Shown here piece by piece: positions 18,501-53,400 of a DNA stretch of 64,000 bases. A model generated the notes under the pieces. It saw nothing but the letters and a program-made list of their open reading frames with translations. It had not been told where the DNA came from and did not search any database. A program made the translations under genes and the position numbers. This DNA is from Planctomycetota bacterium. Its GTDB lineage: Bacteria > Planctomycetota > UBA8108 > SXIK01. Location: assembly GCA_965223845.1 (NCBI GenBank), contig CBDCXR010000004.1, positions 3,787,334 to 3,851,333 on the forward strand, written 5' to 3'. Position 1 is the first letter of the stretch, and every line of letters starts with the position of its first letter.

Positions 18501-18835
18501 CACACCCTCCCTCACGAACGTTCGCGACGCATCGGCCGCCGGATCGTAGCGAATCGAATCTCAAACCGGACGGCTTTGCGAGACCACAGTCGCGCCGCTC
18601 AGCGAGCGGCTCCGACCGAGCGGCGCCTCCGAGACCCCTGGAGATCCGCCGCAGGCAAGCGTCCGAGCGCCTTCCATTTAATGAGCGCTCGCCTCCCCTG
18701 TAAAGAACGGCGACGTGTCGACGCCGACTTCACTTGCCGCTCGGCGACGAATCGGTCAACATTCCCAGCCCGCGGGCGAGAGCCATCTACGATGAGGAGC
18801 CCGCCGCGAGTCCACTACCGCAAGGCGAACACCGC

Positions 18836-37959: not shown

Positions 37960-39678
37960 TCAATCGATCCCGAGCTCGATCTGAAGCCGCTCGAGGAGGA
38001 CGCGCTCGTACTCCGTCATGCTCGTCGCATCTGAACTCGCCGCTCTCGCCGCCTCGAGCGCTTCGTCGATGTTCCGAAGCTGTTGGTGAGCGATCGCGAG
38101 ATAGAGGAGGTTCGCACCGGCGGGAAAGAGCTCGGCGGCGCGCGTGAGATTTGCGATCGCCTCTTCCTCGTCCGCACCGAGGCGGAACTGAATCCAACCG
38201 AGGGTGTTGAGGACGATGCCTTCGAGTTCGGCGGGATCGATGGATCCACCGAAACTCTCCCAAAACTCCGGACGGCGCCCTCGAACGAGGCGCAGAGCTT
38301 CGGTCGCAATCCTCTCGGCAGTGACGAGTTCATCGTCGTCCATCGCCATGAACCAAGCGAGGTTGTTCGCGTCGTGCGCGCGAGCGAGCCACTGTGCCTG
38401 CGCCTTTTTTCCGGCCTCGTATCGGTGGCGGTAGATCTCTACGATGGTCGCGCGCACTTTGGCTGCGCGCGTCTCGAACCGAACCGCGCGAAGCATGTCG
38501 TGAAGCACGAATCCGACTTCCGCTTTTGCCGTGCTCCCGAAGGCGTCCCAGATTCTGATCGCTTGGTCGAGCATTCGTTCGACCGTGCCTTCGAGCGCCT
38601 CGACCTCTTCCGGCGCCGCGTTCTCTGCGAGCGCATCGCGCAGCTCCTTTCGGGCTCGAATGGCCCGGTAGAGGGAGTCGCGGACGAAGTATTCGACGTA
38701 CTCGGGAACTTCGGTCACATCGACGAGACGCCGCACCGACTCGAGATCCGCGTCGCCCCGGTGGAGCGCGGCCCGGAGAGGACGCCACTCGCGCCAAACC
38801 GGATGATGGACGGGAAAGACGGAGTAGGTTCCGAAGAGCACAAACGCCGCCCAAACGGCGACCGTCGCCGCGGCGCGTACGGGTCGAACGCTCGGGATCG
38901 CGCGAGCGAACGCGAGGAATCCGAGGACGGATCCCGTGACGAATCCCCCGAGGTGCGCGCTCGTCGCAATCCGAACCTCATCGCCCGCGAACGAACGTAT
39001 GAGTGCGCCGGTGATGAAGTGGTCGGCGATGAGAATCGTCGGGACGATCAGGAAGTACCGGCCACGAACGCGGAGTCGACCGTTCCGGACGTATCCGAAC
39101 ATGGCGACGAGCAACGCGCCGACGAGACCGTAGAGCGCACCCGACGCTCCGACTCCCAACCCCGAGGAAAACGCCTGGAACGCGAATCCGCCGCCGAGGG
39201 CACTCGCGAGGTAGAGCGTGAGGAATCGCGCGCGTCCGAGCCGAGGCTCGAGACGGATTCCGAACAGGTAGACGCCGAGCATGTTGAGGGCGATGTGCCC
39301 GAAGAACCCGTGCAGAAACGTCGCGGTGAGGATCCGCCAGTATTCGCCGTCCCAAACGCTGATCTGGAACTGCGCCCCGAGCTGCTCGATCGCCGGACTG
39401 CGCGCTTGGAGCCCGTAGACGATCACGTTCGCGAGGATGATCGCCATCGTGACCGGCGCGCGGCCGCGCCGGCGAGGCCTCTGCACGTCGCGACGCGGCG
39501 ACGCCTCCTCGGAGAACGTGTCGGCCGAGCCGTCCTCGCTCGTCGGCGGCGAGCGATCGGTTCCGAGCGGTCCCGACGCGCGCGGCGAATGGATCTCGTG
39601 ACTCTCGCGGCCGGGAACGGGCGGCGGAGTCGACGATCCCAGATGGAACTTCTCGTCCTCTCGCTCAGGCGCGGGCAT
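37960..39678 (-). CDS. rhomboid family intramembrane serine protease with ~300-aa C-terminal helical (TPR-like) domain
   Basis: WRILTATFLHGFFGHIALNM, catalytic GASGALYG, and AHLGGFVTG. The C-terminal half is soluble, helical and repeat-like. The start overlaps the trkH stop by 14 nt. Confidence 0.85.
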   Translation of the reverse strand: MPAPEREDEKFHLGSSTPPPVPGRESHEIHSPRASGPLGTDRSPPTSEDGSADTFSEEASPRRDVQRPRRRGRAPVTMAIILANVIVYGLQARSPAIEQLGAQFQISVWDGEYWRILTATFLHGFFGHIALNMLGVYLFGIRLEPRLGRARFLTLYLASALGGGFAFQAFSSGLGVGASGALYGLVGALLVAMFGYVRNGRLRVRGRYFLIVPTILIADHFITGALIRSFAGDEVRIATSAHLGGFVTGSVLGFLAFARAIPSVRPVRAAATVAVWAAFVLFGTYSVFPVHHPVWREWRPLRAALHRGDADLESVRRLVDVTEVPEYVEYFVRDSLYRAIRARKELRDALAENAAPEEVEALEGTVERMLDQAIRIWDAFGSTAKAEVGFVLHDMLRAVRFETRAAKVRATIVEIYRHRYEAGKKAQAQWLARAHDANNLAWFMAMDDDELVTAERIATEALRLVRGRRPEFWESFGGSIDPAELEGIVLNTLGWIQFRLGADEEEAIANLTRAAELFPAGANLLYLAIAHQQLRNIDEALEAARAASSDATSMTEYERVLLERLQIELGID

Positions 39679-41146
39679 GCGAAGTCTCGCTCAACGATCC
39701 GCGGAGCTGGAGCTTCCGCCACACGTCCGGATGAAGAAGCGCCAGCACGGCGACGATTTCGAGACGTCCGACCCACATCGCGCCGGTGAGGACGAGCTTG
39801 CTCGCCGTGGGCAGGTCGGCAAAGTTCCCCATCGGTCCGACGCTCTGAAACCCCGGTCCGATGTTCCCGAGACACGCGAGCGATGCGGAAAACCCGGTGA
39901 CGAGATCGCTCCCGAAGAGGACGAGGACCGATCCAACGAGAAGATAGCCGAGGAGGTAGAGTCCCCAGAGTGTGACCACCGCGCGCAGAATCTCCGTGGG
40001 AATCGTCCGCTCGCCGTAGCGGATCGGCAACACCGCACGAGGGTGCAGCACTCGCGTGAGCTCGCTCCAAAAAAGCTTGAGCACGAGAAGGAGTCGAATC
40101 GCTTTCGCACCGCCCGCCGCAGATCCAGCGCAGCCTCCCACGAGCATCACGAGCACGAGCAGCACCTTCGCCGAGTCGCCCCAGAGAGCGTAATCCGCGC
40201 TCGCGTAGCCGGTGCTTGAGATCAAGCTCGCCGACTGAAAGAGCCCTAGGCGCACGCGCTCCGCCATCGACCCGCCATCGACGAGTGCGGCGACACCGAG
40301 ACCGCCAAAGACCGCGACACCGATGTAGAAGAGAAACTCGCCATCGCGAAAGACGACGCTCGGGCGCTGCGTGAACGCTCGGTACTGGAGTGTAAAGCTC
40401 GCTCCCGCCAGCAACATAAAGACGATGATAATCCACTCTGCGGCGGGATTCTGGTATCCCGCGATCGACTGCCCGTTCGGAGAGAATCCGCCGGCCGCGA
40501 GCGTCGTCAGGCTGTGGACGAACGCGTCGTAGGGCGACATCCCCGCGATGATGAGCGCAACCGTCTCGATGCCGGTGAGGATCGAGTAGAGCGCCCAGAG
40601 CCGCTGAGCGGTCGAGCGAATCTGCGGCGTGAGCGGCTCCGAAGCAGCGCCCGACGCCTCGGCGAAAAAGAGCTGGCGCCCGGCGATCCCGAGGCGCGGG
40701 AGAACCACGACGAAGAGCGCGATGACACCCAAGCCGCCGAACCACTGCGTCATCGCACGCCAGAGAAAAAACGCGCGCCCGTAGCGCGGATCATCGAAAT
40801 CCCGCAGGATCGTCGCGCCCGTCGTCGTGAATCCCGACATCGACTCGAAGAACGCATCGACGATCGGGAGACCGGAAAAGATGAAGGGCAGAGAGCCGAT
40901 GAGAGCGACGACGAGCCAGGTCCCCGAGACGACTCCCATCGCCTCGCTGCGGCGAAAGACGGAGACTCTACGGTAGCCGAGACTGAACAGAACGCCGATC
41001 GTCAACGCCGCGGCGAGTGCGATGGCAAACTGACCGACCGACGCCCACTCGCGATCGTACGCCGCGAGTAGCATCGGAAGGACGAAGGCGACGCTGAAGT
41101 AGCGAAGAAGGTGACCGATGACGCCGAGAACGAGGAGGATGCGCAC
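39665..41146 (-). CDS. trkH: Trk/Ktr-type potassium uptake membrane subunit
   Basis: Multi-TM with pore-loop motifs SGFTTTGATIL, AAGGFSP, SSTGYAS and GNIGPG. Confidence 0.9.
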   Translation of the reverse strand: MRILLVLGVIGHLLRYFSVAFVLPMLLAAYDREWASVGQFAIALAAALTIGVLFSLGYRRVSVFRRSEAMGVVSGTWLVVALIGSLPFIFSGLPIVDAFFESMSGFTTTGATILRDFDDPRYGRAFFLWRAMTQWFGGLGVIALFVVVLPRLGIAGRQLFFAEASGAASEPLTPQIRSTAQRLWALYSILTGIETVALIIAGMSPYDAFVHSLTTLAAGGFSPNGQSIAGYQNPAAEWIIIVFMLLAGASFTLQYRAFTQRPSVVFRDGEFLFYIGVAVFGGLGVAALVDGGSMAERVRLGLFQSASLISSTGYASADYALWGDSAKVLLVLVMLVGGCAGSAAGGAKAIRLLLVLKLFWSELTRVLHPRAVLPIRYGERTIPTEILRAVVTLWGLYLLGYLLVGSVLVLFGSDLVTGFSASLACLGNIGPGFQSVGPMGNFADLPTASKLVLTGAMWVGRLEIVAVLALLHPDVWRKLQLRGSLSETSHARA

Positions 41147-41319
41147 GGCTAGAAGCTCGCTCCACGGGCGCCCCGGGCCGGACGCCGGTGGATCCGCCGC
41201 GACGGTCGTCGCTGCGCGCGCGCGCCATCGCGACGACTCGCGAGACGGAGCGAGCTCGACGTGGAGGGGACCGACCGTCGTTCAATGCGAATCGATGGGC
41301 TCACCGTGCTCACGACTCC

Positions 41320-42663
41320 TCACACCGTCCGACTCAGGAAGAAATTCCGCGCTTCTTCCTCGAACTCGCGCGTGCAAAAGAGAAGAACTCGATCGTCCGC
41401 GAGGATCTCGTCGCTTCCCTTCGGAATGATGACGTCGGCACCGCGAAGGATCGCGCCGACGATCACGAACTCCGGGACCTTCAGCGAAAAGAGCGGGGTC
41501 CCCGGATAGTCGCTCGGGAGTCGCACCTCGAGCACCATCGCGTCGCCGTGCTCGAGCTCGGCGAGAAGCTCCGTGCCGGAATCGGAGATGCACTTGAGCA
41601 CACTCCGGATCGCCGCGCCGCCCGCCGAACGCACGACGTCGATGCCGACGCGCTCGAACAGGCGCTCGTTCGCTTGCGAACCCGCGCGCGTGACGATTCG
41701 AGGCACGTTGAGCTGCTTCGCGAGCAACGAGACGAGGAGATTCTTCTCGTCGTTCGACATCACCGCGATGAGGACGCTGGCGTCCGCGATGCGCTCCTCT
41801 TCGAGGAGATCGATGTCGGCCCCGTCGCCGTGGAGGACGAGAGAATTGAGCACGCGAGCCACTTCTTCGCAGCGCGTGCGATCCGACTCGATCAACTTCA
41901 CCTGCCAGCCGGCGTCTTCCATTCCCAGCGCGACCGCCAATCCGACCTCGCCCCCGCCGACGACGGTCGCCCGGCGCGCATCGCGCGAGCCGTTCTCCGA
42001 TTTCAAGTATTTGAAGAGGAGCCGGTTCATGTCACCGGGGTTTCCCATCGCGGTGATCTTGTCGCCGGGCTGGAACTCCGTGTTGCCCTTCGGGATGAAG
42101 ATCTCGTCGCCCCGACGAGCCATCACGAGGACGACTCCGCTCGGCACTCCGACTTCCATGAGCCGTCCGCGCGTGACCGGAGCGCCCTCCTCGACGGCGT
42201 GCCGGAACAACTTGACCTTTCCGCCGACGAACGCCTCGACGTCGAGTGCACCCGGGACCGCGACGATCCGCAGGATCTCCTTCGCGAGTTGCTCCGCCGG
42301 CCGGAGCACGTGATCGATGCCGAGCGATTCTGCGAGCGCGGCCGCGCTCCCGACCGCGCCGTGAAAGTCCGATCGGAAGAGGAGGCAGATCGTTTTCTCC
42401 ACGCCGAGCCGCTTCGCGACCACGCAGGCGACGAGATTCTGCTCGTCGTGAGCCGAACACGCGATGAAGACGTCCGCGCTCGCGATCCTCGCGCGGTGGA
42501 GAGTCTCCGTCGACGAGATCAGCCCCGGGACCGTCTCGACATCGAGTCGATCGAATCTCCCGCCGCTTTCCTTCGACGTGACGAGGACGACGCCGTGGTC
42601 GGTCATCGTCGCCTCCGCGATGCGGAAGGCGATCTCGTCGTCTCCAGCGATGACGATATTCAT
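41320..42663 (-). CDS. trkA: Trk system potassium uptake protein TrkA (tandem RCK)
   Basis: Two RCK_N/RCK_C units. The second Rossmann motif is canonical (TVVGGGEVGLAVA). The first is degenerate (IVIAGDDEIAF). Confidence 0.9.
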   Translation of the reverse strand: MNIVIAGDDEIAFRIAEATMTDHGVVLVTSKESGGRFDRLDVETVPGLISSTETLHRARIASADVFIACSAHDEQNLVACVVAKRLGVEKTICLLFRSDFHGAVGSAAALAESLGIDHVLRPAEQLAKEILRIVAVPGALDVEAFVGGKVKLFRHAVEEGAPVTRGRLMEVGVPSGVVLVMARRGDEIFIPKGNTEFQPGDKITAMGNPGDMNRLLFKYLKSENGSRDARRATVVGGGEVGLAVALGMEDAGWQVKLIESDRTRCEEVARVLNSLVLHGDGADIDLLEEERIADASVLIAVMSNDEKNLLVSLLAKQLNVPRIVTRAGSQANERLFERVGIDVVRSAGGAAIRSVLKCISDSGTELLAELEHGDAMVLEVRLPSDYPGTPLFSLKVPEFVIVGAILRGADVIIPKGSDEILADDRVLLFCTREFEEEARNFFLSRTV

Positions 42664-42932: not shown

Positions 42933-44372
42933 TCAAGCGAGGAAGCCGAGAGGAGCGAAGTACCCGTCGCGATCGTCGGCCGCGAGACGCCCGTAGCCGG
43001 GAATGATCTCGCCGATCCTGGACGCCGGATCCCCGAGATGTTGCGTGAGGATCTCGTGGTAGACCGCGCGAAAATCCGTGCGGTGCGCCAGATACCGGCC
43101 GTTTGCGGTGGAGAAGAGATCGCCGTTCTCCCAGCGGTCCGGAGAACAGTTGTAGACGCCCCCGCGCACTCCGCCTCCGAGGGCGAACAGACAGGCGGCC
43201 TCGCCGTGATCGGTCCCCCCGTTCGCGTTCTGGAGCGATGTGCGGCCGAATTCCGTCAGGGTGACGATCAGGACGTCGTTCCAGATCGGCTTCAAGTCGA
43301 AGTAGAGCGCCGTGAGCGCCGCGCCGAGATCGCGAAGAAGTCGAGGAAACGCGGTGACCTGATTCCCGTGCGTATCGTAGTTCCCTTGGTTGCAGCCCGT
43401 GATCTGCAGTCCGTCGACCTGCTTGAGGAGCCGCGCGCAGTCCGCTACGAATCCCGCAAACGCTCGGTCGCTGATGGCAGCGTAGTGCGGCACGGCGTTC
43501 GGCTCCGGATCGTACGGCGCCTCGCGGACGTGAGTCTCGAAGAACTCGAGACTCTCGAGCAGGGTACGCCCGGTCGAGTAGGCGAGCGTCTCGTATGGGA
43601 TCGTCCGCGTAAGACTTCGACCGTACGCGCCCTTGAGGCCGGATCCGATCGGCGGCGCAGCGTTCGGAAACTCGCCGAGCGGCACTCCGGCGGGGAGGGC
43701 GTAGTCGGCGACGGAGCGCAAGACCGGAACGAGGGTCGGTCCCTTCATGAGAACGACTTGGTTGCCGCTGAGTGTCGCGGCGCGCATCGGGTTCGCAGGA
43801 TCAGGATACGCCGTCAGGTAGCGGTTGAACACGCCGTCCTCGCGTGTCGTCTCGCCCGGGAGGCCATTCTCCCAAAACTGCTGGCTCGAAAAGTGCGAGC
43901 GGTTCTGCTCGGCGTAGCCGACGCGGTGAAGAACAGCGAGCTGCGGCCCGCGTTCGTCGAGCCGACCATGAAAGATATCAGCGAGCCGCGGTGCGCCGTC
44001 GCCCGACTCATCGACCGTCGGGTAGAAGTGAGCGAATCCGTTGAGATCGTGCGTCCGCGCCCGGTCCGGACGGAGCTGTGGACGTGCCTCCTCGAACGTC
44101 GGCGCACGCCCGGAGATCCCGGGGTCGCCGTAAGGAATCACCGCCTGGACGCCGTCGAGTCCTCCGCGAAGGAAGATGAAGAGGATCTTCTTCCGCCTCC
44201 CGGCGGGATCGACCGCCGCTGGCTCGCCCGCAAGAGCCGTACCGATCGTCCGGTGAAAAGGCGCCGGAACGCCGAAGCCCAACGCGGCGAGAGACGCCGC
44301 ACTCCAGCGGCAGAATCTGCGCCGACCGAATCGACGAAGCGGATTCCAGATTCGTTCTTCAGATGAATTCAT
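42933..44372 (-). CDS. DUF1501 domain protein (sulfatase-fold, TAT signal)
   Basis: Twin-arginine N-terminus RRFGRRRFCRWSAASLAALG. KILFIFLRGGLDG and TEFGRT...NGGTDHG are family-typical. ATGA overlap with the DUF1800 stop. Confidence 0.9.
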   Translation of the reverse strand: MNSSEERIWNPLRRFGRRRFCRWSAASLAALGFGVPAPFHRTIGTALAGEPAAVDPAGRRKKILFIFLRGGLDGVQAVIPYGDPGISGRAPTFEEARPQLRPDRARTHDLNGFAHFYPTVDESGDGAPRLADIFHGRLDERGPQLAVLHRVGYAEQNRSHFSSQQFWENGLPGETTREDGVFNRYLTAYPDPANPMRAATLSGNQVVLMKGPTLVPVLRSVADYALPAGVPLGEFPNAAPPIGSGLKGAYGRSLTRTIPYETLAYSTGRTLLESLEFFETHVREAPYDPEPNAVPHYAAISDRAFAGFVADCARLLKQVDGLQITGCNQGNYDTHGNQVTAFPRLLRDLGAALTALYFDLKPIWNDVLIVTLTEFGRTSLQNANGGTDHGEAACLFALGGGVRGGVYNCSPDRWENGDLFSTANGRYLAHRTDFRAVYHEILTQHLGDPASRIGEIIPGYGRLAADDRDGYFAPLGFLA

Positions 44373-46798
44373 TGGAGCTGAAATTGAGGCAAACTAGCGA
44401 GGAATGCGGTCACGGCGCGGACGCGATCGACGGCTCCCGCTTCGCGGTAGATCTCGAGCGCGAGCTCGCGATGCTCGACGGGGAGGGCTTGGCCGTGGAG
44501 GAGGAGCGCGAAAAACTCGACCACTCGCTCCCCGCTGTCGAGCGCCCACTGCCGCTGAAACGAGAGCGGATTCCACACGAACCGCCGATCGGCCGGAGAC
44601 CCGGGGTGGATTCCGCGGCTGAGATACTTGAGCCGCTCGAGGAGTCCGATCGTGTGCATCCAGTCGAAGCCGAGCTCCGACTCCCCCGTCGGATCGGCGA
44701 ACTCGAAGAGCTCCATTCCCGCGAGAGTGAGCTCTCGCGACGCGCGAATTCCGTCGTTGACGCTCAAGCCTCCGTCTAGCGCCCGTACCGCGCTCACAAT
44801 CGTCTCGAGCGGTGTCTTTACCTTGGCGCAGGCGTACTCGAGGCTCAGGAACTCGTCCGAGCGAAGGATCGTCCGCACGACCTCGCGCAAGTCTCCGTTC
44901 GAGTGCGCCCACGCGTCGATGACGTCGACGAGAAGATCCGGCTCTTGGTACTCGCGCGGAGAGATTCGCTCGTCCGCGTTCGTGTCGAGTCGGCGAAAGA
45001 CCGCGAGCGGTCTCCCATTCGGAAGAACGAGCGGGATCGGCATCTCCCACTCGTCGAGATCGAGCAATCCGTCACCATCGGAATCGACGCTCTCGAAGTG
45101 CGCAGCGAGCTCGGCGCGGAGAGGGTATGTGCGAGGAAGAGCGGAAAGATCGTCCGTCACGAAGAGCTGGATCAGCTTCGTTCCGACGAACTTCGCCGTG
45201 TCGCGGAAATGCGCGATTCGTCGCAAGACGAGGTCGAACTCCTCGACCGCCCGCTCCGGCGTCCGCTGATCTTCGTTGGCGGGAATCGTGAGCGCCGCCC
45301 GCGGCGGAACGGGGTTCCCGAGCGAGTCGACGCCCCCGTAGCGCGGGAGGAACAGATCTTTTCGCCCCCAATCGTGGCCGCCGTCTCGGAGTCCGGGATG
45401 GCCGAACGCGAAGGCCCACACGTACGTCCCGTCGTCCCAATTCGCCCGCGCCGGGAAGGCAAACGGCCGAGGCTCGCGCCCATCGATCGGGAATCGCGGG
45501 AGGTCGGGCTGGTCGTGAAAGCCGATGTCGTGCGGAAAAAAATGCCGCCGCTCGACCCACGCGACCGTCCAGCCCGTAAGGATGCGCGAGAGCTCCTCGA
45601 TGTCGCGCTGAGTGTACAGATGGTCCACGCCGAGCGTCGACAGCTCAAGCACTTCGCGCGCGTAGTTCTCATTCGGGGCTGCGGCGGTATTCTCGAAGCC
45701 GTTCAAGTAGATGAGCATCGCAACGCTCTTCGCCGAACCTTCGACGAGATCCGCAAAGCTCCCGAGCGCGTGACGCCGAAAGTACTCGTACTCTCGGCGC
45801 TCCATGTCCGCGGCGACAGCGAGCTGAGCGGCGCCGGTTCCGTACTTCCAGTACGCGACCGGAGCGAACTCGAACTCGGCGGGACTCAGCGTGCCGTCGG
45901 CCGTCGAGCGACCGAACTCCGCGAAGCTACGCACACCGGGATGCGCCGCGCGAAACTCACTCCACTCGCCGGCGTCGATCGTGCCGGAGCCGTCGCCATC
46001 GACGTGCCGAAACAGCTCCGCCGAACCGCGCGCGGCGACCCCCCCGCGTCGCATCCGTCCAAAAAAGAGGTCGCGGAGGGTCGTGATCTGAGTGTGAAAG
46101 TGGTTGTTCCAAAACAGCGCGAGGACGTGGAGCAGCTGCCACCGGCTCGAACGCGCGTTTTCGATCAGCATCGCTTCGAGGCGCTCGATGGGCGCGCCCG
46201 ACACCGGATCGCGAAAGCCGATGCGGAGACGATCGATGCGCTGCGCGAGCTCGGGTTCGTGGCCGACCGGATCGTAGTCGACCGGGGGGCGCAGCTGATC
46301 CTCGATATACCGCTCGAGATCGGCGCGCGTTTGAATCCGGGCGAGCAACTCCTCGTTTGGGCCGAACGTGATTCTTCTCAGTGCATGAGCGATGAGCGCG
46401 GTGTCGTCCGGGCACAGCTCGTACTTCGAGCAGCCTAGGTACCCAGAGTTGCGATCGACGCCGCAGGCGACCGGCCCCGGAGGAGCGGGCGGTGGCAGGT
46501 CGCCGAAGAGATGGCCGAGGAGATAGAGCGCATCGGAAATGTCGACGCCATCGTCGTCGTTCGCGTTGGCGGCTTCGACGCACGTCCCGCGACGGCTCTC
46601 CGCGAAGAGTGCGTTCAACACGAAGATCGGATCGGCGACGTTGACCGCACCGTCTGCGTTGGCGTCGCCGCGGCGAAACTGAACCCGGCGAACGAAGGAA
46701 TCTCCGAGCGTCGCGACCAACGGAAGGAGCGTCAAGCAGGTGACGCGCGCCGCGACCGCCAACCCTCCCCCGAACATCCTCTGTCGCTGCTCGCGCAT
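44369..46798 (-). CDS. DUF1800 domain protein with N-terminal dockerin-like module and inserted EF-hand loops
   Basis: DUF1800 blocks LFWNNHFHT, MLIYLNG...NENYAREVLELSTLGV...RILTGW. N-terminal dockerin-like module. Inserted DGDGSGTIDAGEW, DSDGDGLLDLDEW and DTNADERISPREY loops. Start MREQ (46798) or MFGGG (46777). Confidence 0.85.
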   Translation of the reverse strand: MREQRQRMFGGGLAVAARVTCLTLLPLVATLGDSFVRRVQFRRGDANADGAVNVADPIFVLNALFAESRRGTCVEAANANDDDGVDISDALYLLGHLFGDLPPPAPPGPVACGVDRNSGYLGCSKYELCPDDTALIAHALRRITFGPNEELLARIQTRADLERYIEDQLRPPVDYDPVGHEPELAQRIDRLRIGFRDPVSGAPIERLEAMLIENARSSRWQLLHVLALFWNNHFHTQITTLRDLFFGRMRRGGVAARGSAELFRHVDGDGSGTIDAGEWSEFRAAHPGVRSFAEFGRSTADGTLSPAEFEFAPVAYWKYGTGAAQLAVAADMERREYEYFRRHALGSFADLVEGSAKSVAMLIYLNGFENTAAAPNENYAREVLELSTLGVDHLYTQRDIEELSRILTGWTVAWVERRHFFPHDIGFHDQPDLPRFPIDGREPRPFAFPARANWDDGTYVWAFAFGHPGLRDGGHDWGRKDLFLPRYGGVDSLGNPVPPRAALTIPANEDQRTPERAVEEFDLVLRRIAHFRDTAKFVGTKLIQLFVTDDLSALPRTYPLRAELAAHFESVDSDGDGLLDLDEWEMPIPLVLPNGRPLAVFRRLDTNADERISPREYQEPDLLVDVIDAWAHSNGDLREVVRTILRSDEFLSLEYACAKVKTPLETIVSAVRALDGGLSVNDGIRASRELTLAGMELFEFADPTGESELGFDWMHTIGLLERLKYLSRGIHPGSPADRRFVWNPLSFQRQWALDSGERVVEFFALLLHGQALPVEHRELALEIYREAGAVDRVRAVTAFLASLPQFQLQ
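46406..46684 (-). other. dockerin-like double EF-hand module, copy 1 (N-terminal, DUF1800 protein)
   Basis: VQFRRGDANADGAVNVADPIFVLNALF...TCVEAANANDDDGVDISDALYLLGHLFG...PPPAPPGPVACGVD...C. Confidence 0.7.
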
Positions 46799-46975
46799 TC
46801 GAGTTTCGTCTCTCGCTTCGCCGGCCGATGGCACCGGTGATCTAACCGCGCATCCTCCGTCTTTCTTGTACCCGAGAACGATCTCTCGTGCGCCTCCGAA
46901 CCGCGCGCGACCTTGGCTCGGGTCGGAACTCGTGAGACGATGGCGAGAACGAAACGGCTCCGAGTTCCATCGACA

Positions 46976-48526
46976 ATGCGCTTCACCCTCGCGTTCTGCG
47001 CTCTAACTCTGGTCGTCGCGTTCTCGTCCATCGCGCGAGCCGAAGACTTCGTTCGCGGTGATGGGAACGGCGACGCGGCGGTCGACATCGCCGATCCGGT
47101 TTTCGTCTTTCTCGCCCTCTTCGGCAGCGAAGGTCCTCTACCCTGCGCCGACGCGGCGGACGCCAACGACGACGGCGCTGTCGACGTCGCGGACGTCGCC
47201 TATCTCCTCAACTATCTCTTCGGCGACGGGACCGCCCCGCCGCCGCCGGGTGACGGCCCATGCGGAGGCGTCGACCCGACGCTCGACGAGCTCGCGTGTT
47301 CGGAGCCGCTCGAACCGCCGCTCGCGAGCGGACCACCGAGGCTCCGCTGGACGGCGACGTACGCGCCGGCACGGGGACTGGAGCAGCGAACTCGGCTCCC
47401 TCTTTCGACGGAAAGCGACGACACGGTCCGCGCCGACCTCGGCGTCGCGTTTTCCCTGCTTCTCGAGGCTTCGGCACATCCGGACGGCCGCGCGCCCGTC
47501 GAGATTCTGCTCGACCCTCACACTGTCGATCCGGAAGTCCTCGCCGTACGCTGCGATCGCGATCTCCTCTCGCCCGAGGGGATCGTCCCGGCCGGCACCA
47601 ATCTCGCCCCGTGGTTCTCACGCGAGACCGAGGGCTGGATCGACCCGATCTACCTCACCCAGGAGGTCGCGCTCCGGGTCGATCGCCTCACCTCGGTAGG
47701 ACCGATCGATCCGGGTCGCCACGTGTTCACAGCGGAAGCGGTCGACACCGCTTGCGCTCGTGCGTCTCCTGCTGCGATCGCGATCGAGATCGTACCGTCG
47801 CTCGCCCCGCGGATCTCCATCGCCGCGATCGACGAGACCGGAGCTCCGCACCCCCACCACGCGGGGAGCGGCAACCTTCGCGTTTCGCCCGGAGCGGACG
47901 ACATCCTCCTCGAGATCGATGCCACCCCGAACGCCGCCGTTGAGGACGCGCCCATCGACGCGGAGAGTCTACACGTCTCGTCCTCGCCGCCGGTGGACGG
48001 CGCGGCCGATCTCACGGAACGATTCGAGCGCGTCGCACCGACTCTCTGCCGATGGCGGGGCCGCGTCCCCGTGCGCGAGCTCACGCCCGGGAACACGACG
48101 ATCACGGTTTCGCTTCGGTCGGCGAATGACGCCGCGGCGAGCAGCGTCCTCTTCACGATCGAGCTCGAGGTGTCGTACGCCCGCGACGTCCAGTCGATTT
48201 GGAACGCCAACTGCTCCGGCTGCCACGAGGGGCCGAACGCGGCGCGCGGACTCGAGCTCGTCGCGCCCGGAGAAGACCCGGAGGAAATTCGGCGCTCCTT
48301 CGTCAACGTGTTCGCTGCGGGGCCGTCGATCGAATCGGTCGCGCCGGTTCACGTCCGCCCGTTCTTTCCGCGCCGGAGCTACCTCTTTCACAAGCTCGAG
48401 GGCACGCACCTCGACGAGCCCGTCCGCGGCAGCGGCGAACGCATGCCGGCGGACGGTCCGCCGTACTTGAGTGAGGCTGCCATCCACACGGTCCGGAGCT
48501 GGATCGTCCAGGGCGCCGCTCCGTAA
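46976..48526 (+). CDS. secreted protein: N-terminal dockerin-like module, central beta-rich region, C-terminal CxxCH (PSCyt1-like) heme-binding domain
   Basis: Signal peptide MRFTLAFCALTLVVAFSSIARA. Dockerin-like module. C-terminal VQSIWNANCSGCHEG..ARGLEL...SYLFHKLEG...MP...PYLSEAAIHTVRSWI resembles the planctomycete cytochrome c domain. Confidence 0.75.
   Translation: MRFTLAFCALTLVVAFSSIARAEDFVRGDGNGDAAVDIADPVFVFLALFGSEGPLPCADAADANDDGAVDVADVAYLLNYLFGDGTAPPPPGDGPCGGVDPTLDELACSEPLEPPLASGPPRLRWTATYAPARGLEQRTRLPLSTESDDTVRADLGVAFSLLLEASAHPDGRAPVEILLDPHTVDPEVLAVRCDRDLLSPEGIVPAGTNLAPWFSRETEGWIDPIYLTQEVALRVDRLTSVGPIDPGRHVFTAEAVDTACARASPAAIAIEIVPSLAPRISIAAIDETGAPHPHHAGSGNLRVSPGADDILLEIDATPNAAVEDAPIDAESLHVSSSPPVDGAADLTERFERVAPTLCRWRGRVPVRELTPGNTTITVSLRSANDAAASSVLFTIELEVSYARDVQSIWNANCSGCHEGPNAARGLELVAPGEDPEEIRRSFVNVFAAGPSIESVAPVHVRPFFPRRSYLFHKLEGTHLDEPVRGSGERMPADGPPYLSEAAIHTVRSWIVQGAAP
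47042..47320 (+). other. dockerin-like double EF-hand module, copy 2 (N-terminal, CxxCH protein)
   Basis: EDFVRGDGNGDAAVDIADPVFVFLALFG...PCADAADANDDGAVDVADVAYLLNYLFG...PPPPGDGPCGGVDPTLDELAC. Confidence 0.7.
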
Positions 48527-48711
48527 CGGTCGCTGGCGATCGCAGAGCTCGAATCCACCGGGACGCCGAGCAGAATCCGCAGTGACACGGATCTCGGGTA
48601 GGATCTGAAAGAGTAAGCGAGCAGAACTCCGCCGCGATTCGACCCGGAGAGTCCGCCTGCTCGCGGTGCGTCACGCGACTTCAACCAAGTTCATTCTCCG
48701 AGGAGTTGACC

Positions 48712-49281
48712 ATGCGCCGAAAAACGTGGCTCGGCGGTGTGCTCTCTGTGCTCGCCCTCACGCTTCTCATCTCGCCCGACGGCCGCGCTCGTTCCCAGTC
48801 GGGGGACGCGGGTGACGACGGCCCGAAGAAACCCGAGACCGCGACCGTCGACCGCGCCGCGCTCGAAGCAGAGTTCGCCAAGACGCTCGAAAACGCCGTC
48901 CTCGTCGGCAAATTTCGGCTGATCTCGAACGACGAGATCGGCGACGAGAAGCCCGAGCGCTACGAGATTCGGTCGGCGAAGAAGCTCGCGGGCGATCGCT
49001 GGATCATCACCGCTCGCGTCAAGTACGGCACGCTCGACGTCGAGTTTCCGTTCCCGGTCGACGTCGTGTGGGCCGGCGATACACCGATCATCTCTGTCAC
49101 CGACGTGCGCTTTCTCACGTACGGTCCGTACACCGCTCGCGTCATGGTCTACCGCGGACTCTACACCGGAACCTGGTTCGGTCCCGGTCACGGCGGACTC
49201 ATGAGCGGCCGCGTCGAACGCGCCGCAGCGGACGCGAAGGACGCGAAAGACGCAGAACGCGCCGAGCCGAAATCGGAGTAG
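48712..49281 (+). CDS. secreted hypothetical protein
   Basis: AGGAG lies 6 nt upstream of ATG 48712. Signal peptide MRRKTWLGGVLSVLALTLLISP. GC-rich third positions, a beta-rich core and a charged KDAKDAERAEPKSE tail. No family name recognised. Confidence 0.6.
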   Translation: MRRKTWLGGVLSVLALTLLISPDGRARSQSGDAGDDGPKKPETATVDRAALEAEFAKTLENAVLVGKFRLISNDEIGDEKPERYEIRSAKKLAGDRWIITARVKYGTLDVEFPFPVDVVWAGDTPIISVTDVRFLTYGPYTARVMVYRGLYTGTWFGPGHGGLMSGRVERAAADAKDAKDAERAEPKSE

Positions 49282-49317: not shown

Positions 49318-52300
49318 TCACGCCTTCGCGAGGTAGATCACAACTTCGGTTCCAGCGCCCGTGGCGGCCTTGAGGCGGAGGTCCCCTCCGTGTCCTCGCA
49401 CCGCGCCGTATGCGATCGAGAGCCCGATCCCTGAATTGCCGTCGGACAGCTTGGTCGTGAAGAACGGCTCGAGAGCGCGCTCGCGCTCGGGCTCGTTCAT
49501 CCCGGGGCCGCTGTCTCGGATGCGCACTTCAACGTACGCTCCGTCGAGAAGCCCCCCGGGATCGTCCACGAGACGAGTGTTCGACGTGCGAACGGTCAGC
49601 GTACCCGTCGTCGCCATCGCTTCTCGCGCGTTCCGAAGGATCGCCTCGAAGGCGGCGGACAGTCGATTCCGCTGCGCGCGAACCGGCCACAGTCCGACTT
49701 GCGCGCGAAAATCGACTCGCACGCCGCCCCGGCTCGCCGTCTCGGCATCGACGAGCGACTGGAGAAGAGCGTTGAGATCGATCTCCTCTTCCGGCTCCGA
49801 CGAATCGTTCGCGCTGCCGCAGAAGAGAGCCAGCCGATCGGTGAGCTCCTGGGCCTCGGTAAGACGTTCGAGCAGACGGTCGTCGACGCTGGGAGGATGT
49901 TCCTCGGAGCCGAGAAACGCGTCCAGGTGGTCGAGGATCCCGCGCAAGTCGCGAGAGAGTCGGCGCGAGAGTCCTTGGAGACTCTCGAGACGACGATCGC
50001 GCTCGCGAAGCGCCGCGACGCGCGCCTCCCGAGTCTCTTCGACGACGACGACGACACGGGTTCGTTGCCCACCCCCGATCGTGAATCCGCGCAAACGAAA
50101 GATCCGCTCGTCGGCGTCGTTCGGGCGGAACCCCTGAATCGAAAACGGTTCTCCCGCCGCGAGCATGCGAAGAGGAGCGTCGAGGTCGCGATGCGCGAAG
50201 AAGGGGAGGAGCGTGAGGGGCCGTCCGACGACATCGTCGAGTCGCGCCGGATCGATTCCGAGGCTCTCGGCGGCATTCCCGTTGAAGTCGATGACGCGGC
50301 CGCCGGCGTCGAGGACGAAAAGCGGATGGGGATAACTCGCGAACAGCGCGCGGTACCGCGTCTGTCGCCGGCGGTGCGCGAGCGACCACCGAAGCACGAT
50401 CGCCAGCGCAGCGAGCCCGACGATCGCCGCCACGGCGAGGAGCGCGCTCGTGACCCAGTCCCGCGACGGCGCGAAGCCTGCGACGGAAAACCGGTGCACG
50501 ATCGGCTCCCGGCAACTGTTGCCGTCGCGATCGCGCACCTCGACTTCGAGGACGTGATCCCCCGCGGCCAGCGGCCCCACACGAAGCGAGCTCTCGTGCG
50601 AGAACACGGACCACGGCTCGTTGTCGACGCGAGTGCGGTAGAGAAGCTCCCCGGGCGGCGTATCACCCCGGTGATCGTTCGCTCCCCACGAAAACGTGCC
50701 GACGCCGTCCTCATCGATCTCGTTCGGCAGGTCGCGGTGCGTGAAGCGAGGCGGGCGCCGCCCCTCGAGCGGTCGGTAGCGCCACACGCCTTGTCCATGA
50801 GTTCCGATGAGGAGAGTTCCCGGCTCCGAAACCGATGGAAAGACCGGCCAAACGCCGCTCCAACGATCGCCGGCCGAGCCGACGGGGACGTCGTAGAAAC
50901 ATTCGCCGTCGAAGCGGGTAAGCCCTCGATCCGTCCCGAACCAGAGATCGTCCCCGAGAGTCCTGATCGACCACACCGCGCTCGAAATCTCGCGAAAGCT
51001 CTCGACCTCGTCGCCACGGATGCGGCTCACCCCGGTGGCGGAGTCCGGGTAGCAGACCCAGATCGATCCGTCGGAACCTTCCGCGACCGACCACGTCGCG
51101 GACGAGAGCAGCCCGTCGTCGAGATCCCACTGCTGCTCCGGGACGAATCGCGGCTCGCCGACTTCCTCGCCGGAGAGAAACCGGCCACGAAAGACGCCGC
51201 GATCGGTAGCGAGCCAGAGCTCACCCGTCCGGAGGCGAAGGAGGTCGTTGACCGCGTACCGGCCGCCCTCGAGGCTCACCGTCTCGAATTGGGATCCGGT
51301 GAGCACCGAATGACGAAAGATCGCCGAGCTCGGGCCGTCGACGTCGCGGTGCGGGAGAAACCACAGCTCGCCGCGCCAATCCTTCACAATCCGGGCGATG
51401 CGGTGATCGCGAAGGCCCGGCGCGGTGACGCGGTGCCAATTGATCCCGTCGTAGACGTGCGCACCCAAGAACGCGTTCGAAGTGATCCAGACTCGTCCTT
51501 CGCCGTCTTCGGCGAGGCCGGTGACGCGCGGAAACGGAAACGACTGAATCCGTCCGCTGCGTTCGTGGAGCACGACGGCACTGTCCATGCCGGCGAAGAC
51601 GTCCCCGCCGCTGGTTTCGATGAGACTGAGAACACTCGGATGGACTCCCTCGTGCCCGGTCTCGACGTGCGACCAGCGACGCGACTCGGGATCGAAGACG
51701 GCGATTCCTCCCGGTCCCACGCGGAACCAGACGACGCCCGAGGTGTCGACGATCTCCGCCGCGAGCGCGACCGACCCGATGCCCAGCTCCGCCGCCGTCT
51801 CCCAATCGCGACCGTCCGGCGAGACGATGACTCGGCCGTCCTCGGTCGTCGCGACGTAGATGCCGTCGTGGAGGCGGAGGATCCTCGTCACGCTTCGATC
51901 CGGCGCACTCGCCGGACGCCAAACCTCGCCGTCGAGTCGAGCGAGAATGCCCGACGCCCCGGTCTCGGTGCTCGCATCGTCGCGCGGGACGAACCATCCC
52001 CACAGCTCGGCGCTCTCTTCCCCGCCGATCGGATCGCCCGCTGCTCGCCGCGGCGACGCTTCGTGCTCGACGCGGAAAAACCGCACGCAAACCTGGTCGC
52101 CGAGCCGCGGATCGACCTCCCGGCGTTCGACCCGTTTCCACCGCTTTCGACTGAGATCGCGCGTGAAGAGATCGAACGTCGTCGCGATCCAGTGGCGGCC
52201 GTCTCCGGCGACTGCGTACGCGCGGATCTCGCCGGTCACGTTGAGAAGAGGCTGATCCTCCGGGTCGAGAGGAGAGAGAGCCTCGCGGCGAATCTTGAAG

Positions 52301-52839
52301 TGACGGCGCTCCCCGCCGTCGAGAAGAAAGAGCTCGCCGAAACGTCCGCGCGCGAGAAAGAGACTCTGGCCTCGGTACACCGGTTCGAGGACGCCCTCGC
52401 CGAGGAGACGCCAGAGCACGCCCGCGCCGAGCGCGTAGATCTCCTTGAGCGACTCGGCGATCGTCGTGATGTCCGGCGCCGGATTCCCCGCCGGGAACGG
52501 AAACACGTCCCACTGCCACAGGTCGTAGCGGCACACACCGAGATTCGTCGCGGCGTAGACCTCGTTCGTGCTCGCTTGAAGGAGAGCCGTCACCGAGTTC
52601 GAGTTGAGTCCGTCCTCGCGCGAGTAGCTGTTCCAGCGCCACGCTTCGCCGAGCGCCGCTCGCAGCCGCAGAGCGCCGGCCGTCAACTCCGTCGCCGGGG
52701 CAGCTCTCGCCGGGATCGCCGGTTCGAACTGCCCCTGCGCCGGTACTACGGAGGCGCAGATGAGAGATGCACCCACACCAACCGCGGAGACCCTACGCCG
52801 AAGGCGAGCGGCAACGCAGACAGAGCGGCGTGCGTTCAA
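49318..52839 (-). CDS. sensor kinase-like protein: periplasmic two-component-regulator propeller repeats + Y_Y_Y domain, TM, PAS, dimerisation region, HATPase_c
   Basis: TTG at 52839 (TTGA overlap with the upstream small ORF) gives the signal peptide MNARRSVCVAARLRRRVSAVGVGASLICASVVPAQG. Long propeller-type repeats follow, then a Y_Y_Y-like segment (LLYRTRVDNEPWSVF...HVLEVEVRDRDGN) and TM LLAVAAIVGLAALAIVL. ATPase boxes present: ILRNAREAM, DSGPGM, FEPFFTTK, GIGLSI. Confidence 0.85.
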   Translation of the reverse strand: MNARRSVCVAARLRRRVSAVGVGASLICASVVPAQGQFEPAIPARAAPATELTAGALRLRAALGEAWRWNSYSREDGLNSNSVTALLQASTNEVYAATNLGVCRYDLWQWDVFPFPAGNPAPDITTIAESLKEIYALGAGVLWRLLGEGVLEPVYRGQSLFLARGRFGELFLLDGGERRHFKIRREALSPLDPEDQPLLNVTGEIRAYAVAGDGRHWIATTFDLFTRDLSRKRWKRVERREVDPRLGDQVCVRFFRVEHEASPRRAAGDPIGGEESAELWGWFVPRDDASTETGASGILARLDGEVWRPASAPDRSVTRILRLHDGIYVATTEDGRVIVSPDGRDWETAAELGIGSVALAAEIVDTSGVVWFRVGPGGIAVFDPESRRWSHVETGHEGVHPSVLSLIETSGGDVFAGMDSAVVLHERSGRIQSFPFPRVTGLAEDGEGRVWITSNAFLGAHVYDGINWHRVTAPGLRDHRIARIVKDWRGELWFLPHRDVDGPSSAIFRHSVLTGSQFETVSLEGGRYAVNDLLRLRTGELWLATDRGVFRGRFLSGEEVGEPRFVPEQQWDLDDGLLSSATWSVAEGSDGSIWVCYPDSATGVSRIRGDEVESFREISSAVWSIRTLGDDLWFGTDRGLTRFDGECFYDVPVGSAGDRWSGVWPVFPSVSEPGTLLIGTHGQGVWRYRPLEGRRPPRFTHRDLPNEIDEDGVGTFSWGANDHRGDTPPGELLYRTRVDNEPWSVFSHESSLRVGPLAAGDHVLEVEVRDRDGNSCREPIVHRFSVAGFAPSRDWVTSALLAVAAIVGLAALAIVLRWSLAHRRRQTRYRALFASYPHPLFVLDAGGRVIDFNGNAAESLGIDPARLDDVVGRPLTLLPFFAHRDLDAPLRMLAAGEPFSIQGFRPNDADERIFRLRGFTIGGGQRTRVVVVVEETREARVAALRERDRRLESLQGLSRRLSRDLRGILDHLDAFLGSEEHPPSVDDRLLERLTEAQELTDRLALFCGSANDSSEPEEEIDLNALLQSLVDAETASRGGVRVDFRAQVGLWPVRAQRNRLSAAFEAILRNAREAMATTGTLTVRTSNTRLVDDPGGLLDGAYVEVRIRDSGPGMNEPERERALEPFFTTKLSDGNSGIGLSIAYGAVRGHGGDLRLKAATGAGTEVVIYLAKA

Positions 52840-53150
52840 GGGCGGGCGGGCGGCGGATCTCCTGCAGCCGCGCTCCCCTGGGCGACCGCCGCGACTCCGG
52901 AGAGGCTCTCGGCGCGCGCGACGCGGGCGATGAATACCGCGAGCCCTGCGCCGATGCTGAGAACGACACCGAGCATAAAGAGGATGCTCCAGTAGAGGCC
53001 CGCCGCCAGACTCCCCTGCGAATCGCCGCCGTCCGATCGAGCGCTGTCCTCGACGGCCTCGCCGCACATCGCACACTGGGCGGTGAGCTCCGGTGCGAAC
53101 GCTGCAAAGGAGAGGGCGACGATGACGAACATGCGCGCGGGAGTGTTCAT
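52836..53150 (-). CDS. small membrane protein with signal peptide, CAMC motif and one TM helix
   Basis: 104 codons with strongly GC-rich third positions. MNTPARMFVIVALSFAAFAPELTAQ-CAMCGE...LYWSILFMLGVVLSIGAGLAVFIA. The stop overlaps the TTG of the sensor kinase. The competing frame here is only the Arg-rich extension of the kinase ORF. Confidence 0.6.
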   Translation of the reverse strand: MNTPARMFVIVALSFAAFAPELTAQCAMCGEAVEDSARSDGGDSQGSLAAGLYWSILFMLGVVLSIGAGLAVFIARVARAESLSGVAAVAQGSAAAGDPPPARP

Positions 53151-53400
53151 GCTCTAATTCTATCCCGGACCGCGCGGGAGTTTCTACTCCGCCGCACGTT
53201 TCTCGGCGGACGCGGGCTGGGCCGGCTCGGTTTCGCGCGCGCCCCGGGCAGCGCGCCGCGATACGATGCGCTCGCGGTCGATTTCCGACCGATCATAGGC
53301 CCCACCCACTCGAAATCGACGAGCTCCCACGATGCCGTTTCTCCCTCGACGTCGACCCGACGAACGTGTGCGCAGAGATCGAACGCCGCACGCATACACG

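Follow-up and report, generated by a model that had tools for sequence, protein, structure and literature searches.

EF-hand insertions in a DUF1800 protein encoded with DUF1501 and a dockerin-tagged cytochrome c in a small Planctomycetota clade

Background

DUF1800/DUF1501 gene pairs are widespread in bacteria, and an operon has been predicted for them (PMC5122149). In Planctomycetes and Verrucomicrobia, few families have multiplied as much as DUF1501 and the large proteins that partner it (DUF1800, PSCyt/PSD); these are also common in other phyla. That DUF1501 is associated in PVC bacteria with proteins of the cytochrome c type has already been published (Kamneva et al. 2012, PMC3542564). 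The literature searched yielded no function for any DUF1800 or DUF1501 protein.

The locus described here lies in a 64,000-nucleotide stretch of Planctomycetota DNA (the window) and comprises a DUF1800 protein with EF-hands (DUF1800-EF), a downstream DUF1501 gene and a divergently transcribed gene for a mono-heme cytochrome c protein (Table 1). An earlier note on this DNA had reported the EF-hand loops and proposed a Ca-regulated complex of these proteins.

Table 1. Positions of the genes, domains and motifs of the locus within the window
Feature	Positions	Strand	Remarks
DUF1800-EF protein	44369-46798	minus	809 aa from ATG 46798; Pfam DUF1800 match; alternative starts GTG 46834 and ATG 46777 (start of database copy P0001)
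Putative signal peptide/anchor region of DUF1800-EF	46703-46798	minus	residues 1-32; basic n-region, then hydrophobic stretch
Dockerin-fold module of DUF1800-EF	46409-46693	minus	residues ~36-130; two Ca loops, four conserved Cys
Dockerin Ca loops of DUF1800-EF	46631-46666 and 46532-46567	minus	
Insertion 1	45815-46090	minus	residues ~237-328; EF-hand pair, EF1 and degenerate partner
EF1 loop, DGDGSGTIDAGE	45965-46000	minus	canonical
Degenerate partner loop of EF1	45875-45910	minus	
Two further subfamily-specific insertions	45254-45556	minus	residues ~415-458 and ~485-515; without EF motifs
Insertion 3	44942-45151	minus	residues ~550-619; canonical EF-hand pair, EF2 and EF3
EF2 loop, DSDGDGLLDLDE	45050-45085	minus	canonical
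EF3 loop, DTNADERISPRE	44951-44986	minus	canonical ligands
ATGA stop/start overlap, DUF1800/DUF1501	44369-44372	minus	read from sequence
DUF1501 protein	42933-44372	minus	479 aa
Twin-arginine motif of DUF1501	44304-44327	minus	GRRRFCRW
DUF1501 conserved motif GGxD	44151-44174	minus	
DUF1501 conserved motif RSHF	43890-43904	minus	
DUF1501 conserved motif DTH	43365-43379	minus	
DUF1501 conserved motif TDHG	43203-43220	minus	
Divergent intergenic region	46799-46912		common to DUF1800 operon and cytochrome gene
Dockerin-tagged mono-heme cytochrome c protein	46913-48526	plus	537 aa; database copy starts 46976
Dockerin module of cytochrome protein	47042-47308	plus	
Cytochrome c domain	48173-48526	plus	C-terminal, class I
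CSGCH motif (CxxCH)	48212-48226	plus	read from sequence
Conserved Met in GERMP	48434-48448	plus	

Clade distribution and gene order

The EF-hand architecture of DUF1800 is not unique to the window genome; it defines a small, conserved Planctomycetota clade of ~50 clusters at 90% identity, with three full-length clusters at 50%. Database protein P0001 is 100% identical to the window DUF1800-EF protein. Related MAGs come from marine and groundwater habitats.

DUF1501 lies directly downstream of DUF1800-EF in 13 related loci, where its orthologs (51-65% identity) track those of DUF1800-EF (46-58%). Of the 13 loci with both DUF1501 and enough upstream sequence, 12 hold a cytochrome ortholog. These orthologs are full-length, share 32-44% identity and adjoin DUF1800-EF divergently in 13 related loci, the gene order across the intergenic region being kept. 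The ATGA overlap, from which coupling had been read, is present in the window genome but is not conserved, a 72-nt gap separating the two genes in the closest relative; this counts against the explanation preferred below.

It has also to be considered that the three genes are neighbors without a shared mechanism, with DUF1800-EF acting alone, for example as a Ca-binding structural protein of the surface or periplasm, and the adjacency being historical. Consistent with this, class B paralogs and the single locus L002 keep all EF loops without adjacent DUF1501 or cytochrome genes, and locus L004 has DUF1501 but lacks the cytochrome gene, all of which count against a three-protein module. However, the pairing of DUF1800 with DUF1501 is widespread, with a predicted operon (PMC5122149), all three genes stay together in 12 loci whose proteins share 32-65% identity, and DUF1800-EF and the cytochrome protein have a common dockerin type, which makes an accident of neighborhood very unlikely. 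A canonical DUF1501-PSCyt-PSD1 module is located 4-6 kb from the class B paralogs.

The DUF1800-EF protein

DUF1800-EF matches the DUF1800 family (PF08811) with 242.1 bits against a Pfam gathering score of 26.1 (E 1.6e-71), the match falling in three stretches because of insertions. The family motifs HxLxRxTFG, WxNHF, NENYAREhxEL and HDxGxK are present, and the invariant residues R142, H233, E377, N378, R381, E382, E385 and H475, among others, are retained, invariance having been scored in alignments of 75 and 55 sequences, canonical members of ~500 aa among them. The AF2 model has a pLDDT of 92.2 and a pTM of 0.91, with pLDDT below 50 at residues 1-14 and 20-32. The N-termini of homologs resemble that of the window protein, and conserved Cys residues together with the signal-peptide-like N-terminus suggest that DUF1800-EF is exported.

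The N-terminal module, previously called dockerin-like, has a dockerin fold with two Ca loops, whose ligands are canonical in 46 and 45 of the 48 homologs, respectively. The dockerin type I model (PF00404) leaves the modules of DUF1800-EF (14.9 bits) and the cytochrome protein (14.2) below its cut-off of 22.9, and the same module in ORF 17310-18515 passes it with 25.7 bits. Besides these two proteins, many unrelated secreted planctomycete proteins carry this module.

EF-hand pairs in the DUF1800 core

The three canonical EF-hand loops of the earlier note are present at coordinates agreeing with the ranges it gave, and a fourth, degenerate loop that it had missed is paired with EF1. Four EF-hand families (PF00036, PF13202, PF13405 and PF13499) were tested, and DUF1800-EF exceeds the gathering scores of all, with 49 bits for EF-hand_5, 42 for EF-hand_1, 35 for EF-hand_6 and 32.5 for EF-hand_7; insertion 3 matches EF-hand_7 with an E-value of 1.1e-7. 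An EF-loop regular expression finds four matches against 0.096 expected, a number reached in 0 of 20,000 shuffles. Ligands are canonical in 40 (EF1), 46 (EF2) and 44 (EF3) of the 48 homologs, and the partner loop of EF1 is canonical in none of them, its D5, G6 and E12 being conserved. Position 6 of EF3 is Glu in the window protein and Gly in 41/48 homologs. Judged by these alignments, the Ca ligands of the EF and dockerin loops are under purifying selection.

Both pairs reside in lineage-specific core insertions, as had been anticipated. Insertion 1 measures 94 aa in the subfamily versus 7 aa, as a median, in DUF1800 proteins outside it, and insertion 3 measures 70 aa versus exactly 3 aa (a D/E-P-P turn); the two further insertions, which flank the conserved HDWGRK motif, measure 44 aa versus 2 aa and 31 aa versus 6 aa. 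In the AF2 model analyzed with DSSP, helices flank each EF loop and beta-bridges occur at 274/304 and 579-580/611-612. In insertion 1 the model shows helix-loop-helix units whose beta-bridges fall at position 8 of the loop, and the predicted structure pairs two helix-loop-helix units in the manner of EF-hands. Since other DUF1800 proteins have 7 and 3 residues at the sites of the EF-hand insertions, and the CxxCH gene keeps its place in 13 related loci, neither of the observations that the earlier note named as fatal to its proposal (such loops in most homologs, or loss of this synteny) was made.

The possibility that the loops bind another metal, for example lanthanides as in lanmodulin, with the module handling that metal, is extremely improbable. 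The NCBIfam lanmodulin model LanM (NF053806) gives a weak match (E 0.044), but at 13.9 bits versus a cut-off of 135, and ordinary EF-hand models fit the loops well. Carboxylates are frequent at position 9 of the EF2 loop (D 20/48, E 15/48), as such a reading would expect. Pro at loop position 2 is a hallmark of lanmodulin, yet it is absent from the six most frequent residues at this position in all three loops of the 48 sequences.

The DUF1501 protein

The DUF1501 protein matches PF07394 with 86.9 bits against 27 (E 2e-24) over profile positions 242-332 of 390 only, and its homologs carry this family throughout. The twin-arginine signal noted before is borne out by R17, R18 and F20, each at least 90% conserved in 55 homologs, and DUF1501 is therefore predicted to be exported by the Tat system. 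Its alpha/beta core fold is shared with AP, NPP and sulfatases. Invariant residues include D73, S159-H160, D333, H335 and D388-H389 as candidate metal ligands and nucleophile; S159, the candidate nucleophile, follows strand 145-152 and precedes helix 160-169.

The cytochrome c partner

The C-terminal 117 aa of the divergently encoded protein alone pass the Pfam Cytochrome_CBB3 model (PF13442; 28.7 versus 27 bits, E 1.6e-6), whereas the whole 537-aa protein scores 22.8 bits, under the cut-off. The motifs CxGCHE, RMP and SWIxQGA are conserved in 14 aligned sequences. PSCyt1 (PF07635), the planctomycete cytochrome c family, gives no match to the isolated domain at E <= 10, and a true PSCyt protein from locus L017 scores 58 bits; a resemblance of the window domain to PSCyt1 is therefore no more than a lead. 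With its CxxCH motif and distal Met, the protein is of the class I cytochrome c type and a predicted heme carrier.

Proposed role of Ca2+ and significance

A tentative explanation, the best available though held at somewhat under even odds, is that these proteins of a small Planctomycetota clade work together outside the cytoplasm as a three-protein module in which Ca2+ serves structure or assembly and not switching. DUF1501 would be a Tat-exported enzyme of the alkaline phosphatase superfamily, retaining the full set of candidate ligands of a two-metal site and a candidate Ser nucleophile. DUF1800-EF would be its large, mostly helical partner, probably exported via Sec, with five predicted Ca2+ sites, namely two in the N-terminal dockerin and three in the two EF-hand pairs that appear to interrupt surface turns of the conserved core. 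The mono-heme protein bears the same type of dockerin, and this common module makes a shared location with DUF1800-EF probable. Since Ca2+ is abundant outside the cell, EF-hands and dockerins beyond the cytoplasm are as a rule saturated with it and serve as structural sites, above all in marine and groundwater habitats. The EF-hand pairs may accordingly be permanently loaded and rigidify the clade-specific surface insertions outside the cytoplasm.

The Ca-regulated complex of the earlier note, in which the EF pairs would be sensors and the conformation of DUF1800 would switch DUF1501 activity or electron transfer from the cytochrome, draws on canonical loops with conserved ligands. Their placement also suits regulation: EF1 is inserted directly after WNNHFH, the most conserved His motif of the family (W230/N232/H233), and EF2/EF3 directly precede the conserved motif EPDLL...REV.R.IL.SDEF. 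Nevertheless, DUF1800-EF is apparently an exported protein with a dockerin that is itself Ca-dependent, and its sites more likely bind Ca2+ structurally. External Ca2+ normally lies far above EF-hand affinities, and for this reason switching is considered unlikely and Ca regulation unsupported.

It is also conceivable, though rather improbable, that the internal pairs act as dockerin-like docking surfaces to which DUF1501, the cytochrome protein or some cohesin-like scaffold would bind; Ca2+ would then serve complex assembly instead of fold stability. Dockerins are duplicated EF-like loops, of which DUF1800-EF already uses one set; the same module is borne by the cytochrome protein, both proteins being presumably exported, and new interfaces typically arise at surface insertions. 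Against this, the EF loops are kept in paralogs without adjacent DUF1501 or cytochrome genes.

By itself, the EF-hand decoration is a modest, clade-level domain insertion. The EF-hand clade nevertheless represents a compact system in which the heme domain resides on a separate small protein, and the conserved Ca sites of the helical partner are open to mutation, Tb3+ luminescence and Ca-dependent stability tests; this layout and these probeable sites could ease biochemical dissection.

Comparison with known systems

Like other DUF1800/DUF1501 pairs, the window locus has the two families adjacent and co-oriented with a Tat signal on DUF1501 (PMC5122149), and its DUF1800 protein keeps all family-wide invariant residues. 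Unlike them, it has a dockerin, two EF-hand pair insertions and two more insertions (809 versus ~500 aa), a conserved divergent cytochrome c partner and an ATGA coupling local to the window genome.

Cellulosomal type I dockerins differ from the window modules, which fall under the Pfam cut-off in both proteins of the module, carry an extra Cys-containing PPPxPGPxxCG extension and occur in a planctomycete instead of a cellulolytic firmicute. The EF-hand pairs resemble calmodulin-like pairs (PF13499) in their 12-residue loops (D1, D/N/S3, D/N/S5, G6, hydrophobic 8, E12) and in their modeled pairing through a short beta-bridge. In contrast to these, they occur as single pairs in an unrelated helical protein that is probably exported, include one degenerate loop among their four, and are probably structural sites and not sensors. 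DUF1501 shares only 8-15% identity with nucleotide pyrophosphatase/phosphodiesterases and other alkaline-phosphatase-superfamily enzymes, from which it also differs by a large helical insertion (residues ~262-318) and by needing, or at least being encoded with, a DUF1800 partner.

The window DUF1800-EF protein has no Pfam match to PSCyt2 (DUF1549) or PSD1 (DUF1553). In hhalign comparisons, the C-terminal half of DUF1800 aligns with PSD1/DUF1553 over 211-249 collinear columns (P 8.7e-4 to 0.0033; HH probability 10-23%), versus P 0.03-0.63 over 12-47 columns in controls, and sub-threshold Pfam PSD1, PSD2 and PSD5 matches recur in 3-4 of 55 DUF1800 members. These profile comparisons suggest a remote relationship between this half and PSD1/DUF1553. 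A bolder and quite unlikely proposal makes DUF1800 a remote PSD1/DUF1553 homolog, unites DUF1800-DUF1501 pairs and PVC PSCyt-PSD-DUF1501 modules in one superfamily and regards the EF-hand clade as its split, Ca2+-assembled form. Such systems would be two-component extracytoplasmic machines, with enzyme, helical partner and heme protein here split onto three polypeptides, and dockerins and internal EF pairs might mediate Ca2+-dependent assembly on a planctomycetal surface scaffold. If confirmed, the DUF1800-PSD1 link would unify two large sets of uncharacterized systems.

Like the PVC modules of DUF1501 with PSCyt1/PSCyt2/PSD1 (PMC3542564), the window trio combines a Tat-signal DUF1501, a large, probably exported partner and a c-type heme domain. 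It departs from them in that the heme domain is of the Cytochrome_CBB3 and not the PSCyt1 type and resides on a separate dockerin-tagged protein, that the partner of DUF1501 is DUF1800 and not PSCyt2-PSD1, and that EF-hands, absent from the classical module, are present. The trio is a variant of the DUF1501-plus-cytochrome systems already known from PVC bacteria and not a one-off.

Architecture of the EF-hand-decorated DUF1800 protein

DUF1800-EF, a DUF1800 protein with an N-terminal dockerin module and internal EF-hand loops (EF1, EF2 and EF3), matches Pfam DUF1800 (E 1.6e-71) and four EF-hand families, every one of them above its gathering score; its Dockerin_1 match is sub-threshold. An EF-loop regular expression finds four matches in the protein against 0.096 expected, a number reached by none of 20,000 shuffled sequences. 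The adjoining gene encodes a DUF1501 protein whose N-terminal twin-arginine motif is conserved among 55 homologues. The EF loops, the ATGA overlap between the two genes and the twin-arginine signal, all proposed in the earlier note, are thereby confirmed from the sequence, Pfam, the shuffles and these homologues. As a clade-conserved feature the ATGA overlap was rejected, as it is not kept across the clade. For DUF1800-EF, sequence searches of the PDB return nothing but dockerin and EF matches, and for DUF1501 no match.

Features of the module and its surroundings (window coordinates)
Feature	Position	Strand	Remarks
DUF1800-EF gene	44369-46798	-	809 aa from ATG; alternative starts GTG 46834, ATG 46777
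DUF1501 gene	42933-44372	-	479 aa; Pfam DUF1501 E 2e-24
ATGA overlap, DUF1800-EF/DUF1501	44369-44372	-	seen in sequence
EF1 loop	45965-46000	-	canonical, 12-residue
EF2 loop	45050-45085	-	canonical, 12-residue
EF3 loop	44951-44986	-	canonical, 12-residue
Two dockerin-type loops of DUF1800-EF	46631-46666, 46532-46567	-	
DUF1800 C-terminal half (PSD1 comparison)	44369-45400		
CxxCH (cytochrome c) gene	46913-48526	+	divergent from DUF1800-EF; encodes a signal peptide
TrkA, TrkH, rhomboid-domain protein	37960-42663	-	after DUF1501
ORF just downstream of cytochrome gene	48706-49281	+	191 aa, exported-looking
Sensor histidine kinase	49318-53076	-	1252 aa; Reg_prop, Y_Y_Y, PAS, HATPase
PIG-L/NPCBM_assoc protein	53332-56085	+	917 aa
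Dockerin-tagged exported protein	17310-18515	-	401 aa; module C-terminal, Cys-containing PPAPPG..CG tail

Alignment with 27 other DUF1800 proteins reveals four segments that are present in DUF1800-EF only. Between fixed flanking alignment columns the EF1 region measures 94 aa, where the other proteins have a median of 7 aa. The EF2/EF3 region measures 70 aa and corresponds elsewhere to a D/E-P-P turn of exactly 3 aa. The remaining two insertions, of 44 and 31 aa (2 and 6 aa, respectively, in the other proteins), contain no EF motifs. Canonical residues occupy calcium-ligand positions 1, 3, 5 and 12 in 40 (EF1), 46 (EF2) and 44 (EF3) of 48 subfamily members, and in 46/48 and 45/48 for the two dockerin loops. 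The partner loop of EF1 (residues 297-308) is degenerate and has kept only D5, G6 and E12. The view that the EF loops lie in insertions is borne out by these lengths.

A search of 5.8 billion proteins yielded one protein identical to DUF1800-EF and approximately 50 clusters whose proteins are 800-900 aa long and 45-58% identical to it, nearly all with EF-hand Pfam matches, the named members being Planctomycetota. The EF loops lie at the same three positions throughout these relatives. Other planctomycete DUF1800 proteins of ~660 and ~1000 aa possess the dockerin and lack internal EF loops, and canonical proteins of ~500 aa have neither. Run with HMMER against the complete set of 1.84 billion representatives at 50% identity, the subfamily profile gave 28,504 hits at E <= 1e-10, but end-to-end matches were limited to three full-length clusters and a few fragments; among the matches listed, those outside the subfamily were mostly multi-stretch DUF1800 matches. 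The EF decoration is therefore the mark of a small, tight clade within a very large family.

A 'DES.N..L..RE' motif that fits a loose EF-loop pattern recurs at a conserved position in the ~1000-aa subfamily of dockerin-DUF1800 proteins and in related hits (database proteins P0063, P0066, P0067, P0085, P0297, P0301, P0303 and P0328). It may represent another calcium site or have arisen by chance.

Composition of the module

The divergent CxxCH protein shares with DUF1800-EF the dockerin module and its Cys-containing PPPxPGPxxCG tail, which are followed over ~290 aa by a middle region with no family match. Its C-terminal domain, taken alone, exceeds the Pfam Cytochrome_CBB3 cut-off. Membership of this haem domain in PSCyt1, a planctomycete cytochrome domain, was rejected, as no PSCyt1 match was obtained. 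CxGCHE, RMP and SWIxQGA are conserved in 14 aligned sequences of the protein.

With each species represented by one genome, a scan located 26 loci, all in Planctomycetota MAGs. A full-length orthologue of the CxxCH protein (32-44% identity) is encoded divergently upstream of DUF1800-EF in 13 of them, and a DUF1501 orthologue (51-65%) directly downstream, likewise in 13/26. Where DUF1501 and enough upstream sequence are available, the cytochrome gene is found in 12 of 13 loci; the sole exception is L004 (1-1300), in which a ROK-like gene takes its place and DUF1800-EF and DUF1501 are kept. Synteny of the CxxCH gene, proposed earlier as a check, is therefore upheld, and the module comprises three genes. 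That these genes stand together without any functional link is considered distinctly improbable.

The EF loops also occur apart from these partners. A paralogous clade from marine MAGs (L014, L016-L019, L021, L023 and L026) and a separate locus, L002 (listed L002/L003), keep all the EF loops without an adjacent DUF1501 or cytochrome gene. A 1458-aa LTD-CotH protein is encoded upstream of the paralogue in several marine loci, and a classical PSCyt1-PSCyt2-PSD1 and DUF1501 pair lies 4-6 kb downstream in L017, L023 and L026.

Several neighbouring genes were considered as well. TrkA, TrkH and the rhomboid-domain protein recur in the same order at L001:12154-17107 (9.18-Mb Planctomycetota MAG OZ244999.1); their synteny is confined to the closest relative, and they have no relation to the module. 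The 191-aa ORF has no Pfam or NCBIfam match and is placed outside the module because its conservation is limited to the closest relative (56% identity) and it is not adjacent there, an IS110 transposase and other genes intervening. The large histidine kinase and PIG-L/NPCBM_assoc genes flank the module.

Proposed roles of the components and of the EF-hand pairs

Domain architecture, insertions, ligand conservation, folds and synteny point to an extracytoplasmic module of three components. DUF1501 would be a Tat-exported enzyme of the alkaline phosphatase superfamily and DUF1800-EF its Sec-exported helical partner, and the haem protein would probably reach the site of DUF1800-EF through their common dockerin type. 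The dockerin module itself is a general tag of many unrelated secreted planctomycete proteins: its carriers in this lineage include esterases, serpins and serine hydrolases, and in the ORF at 17310-18515 it scores above the Pfam Dockerin_1 cut-off (25.7 bits). A role of the EF pairs as internal docking surfaces is thought unlikely.

Dockerins and external EF-hands are usually calcium-saturated. Since the proteins also appear to be exported, the EF pairs are tentatively regarded as structural or assembly sites rather than switches, and service in calcium regulation seems rather unlikely. The calcium-regulated complex envisaged in the earlier note, whose reasoning was otherwise largely sound, is on these grounds not sustained. 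Binding of another metal is very improbable, and lanmodulin-like selectivity was rejected, because the lanmodulin score is low (13.9 bits, the cut-off being 135) and the residues frequent at loop position 2 do not include proline.

Relationship to known systems

Pairing of DUF1800 with DUF1501 is known and uncharacterised (PMC5122149), and DUF1501 together with PSCyt/PSD cytochrome proteins constitutes a described module of PVC bacteria whose function is unknown (PMC3542564). The literature searched assigns no function to DUF1800. Members of DUF1800 repeatedly match the Pfam families PSD5, PSD1 and PSD2 below threshold. A comparison of loci L030-L109 with alignments A4/A1 addressed PSD1 (DUF1553), the usual partner of DUF1501 in PVC bacteria. 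With hhalign, 44 canonical DUF1800 proteins and 79 PSCyt1-PSCyt2-PSD1 proteins gave a collinear alignment of 249 columns (P 0.0033), in which the C-terminal half of DUF1800 is paired with the PSD1 region and both C-termini are reached; a broader DUF1800 alignment covered 211 columns at P 8.7e-4. All controls, whether reversed, column-shuffled or drawn from unrelated families, were weaker (P 0.03-0.63, 12-47 columns). The comparison was uninformative with just three near-identical PSCyt proteins and became suggestive only with the 79 diverse sequences. These alignments suggest that the C-terminal half of DUF1800 may be a remote relative of PSD1. The locus is not unique and is unlikely to encode a calcium-regulated complex; it represents a variant, kept across the clade, of a system that is known but uncharacterised.
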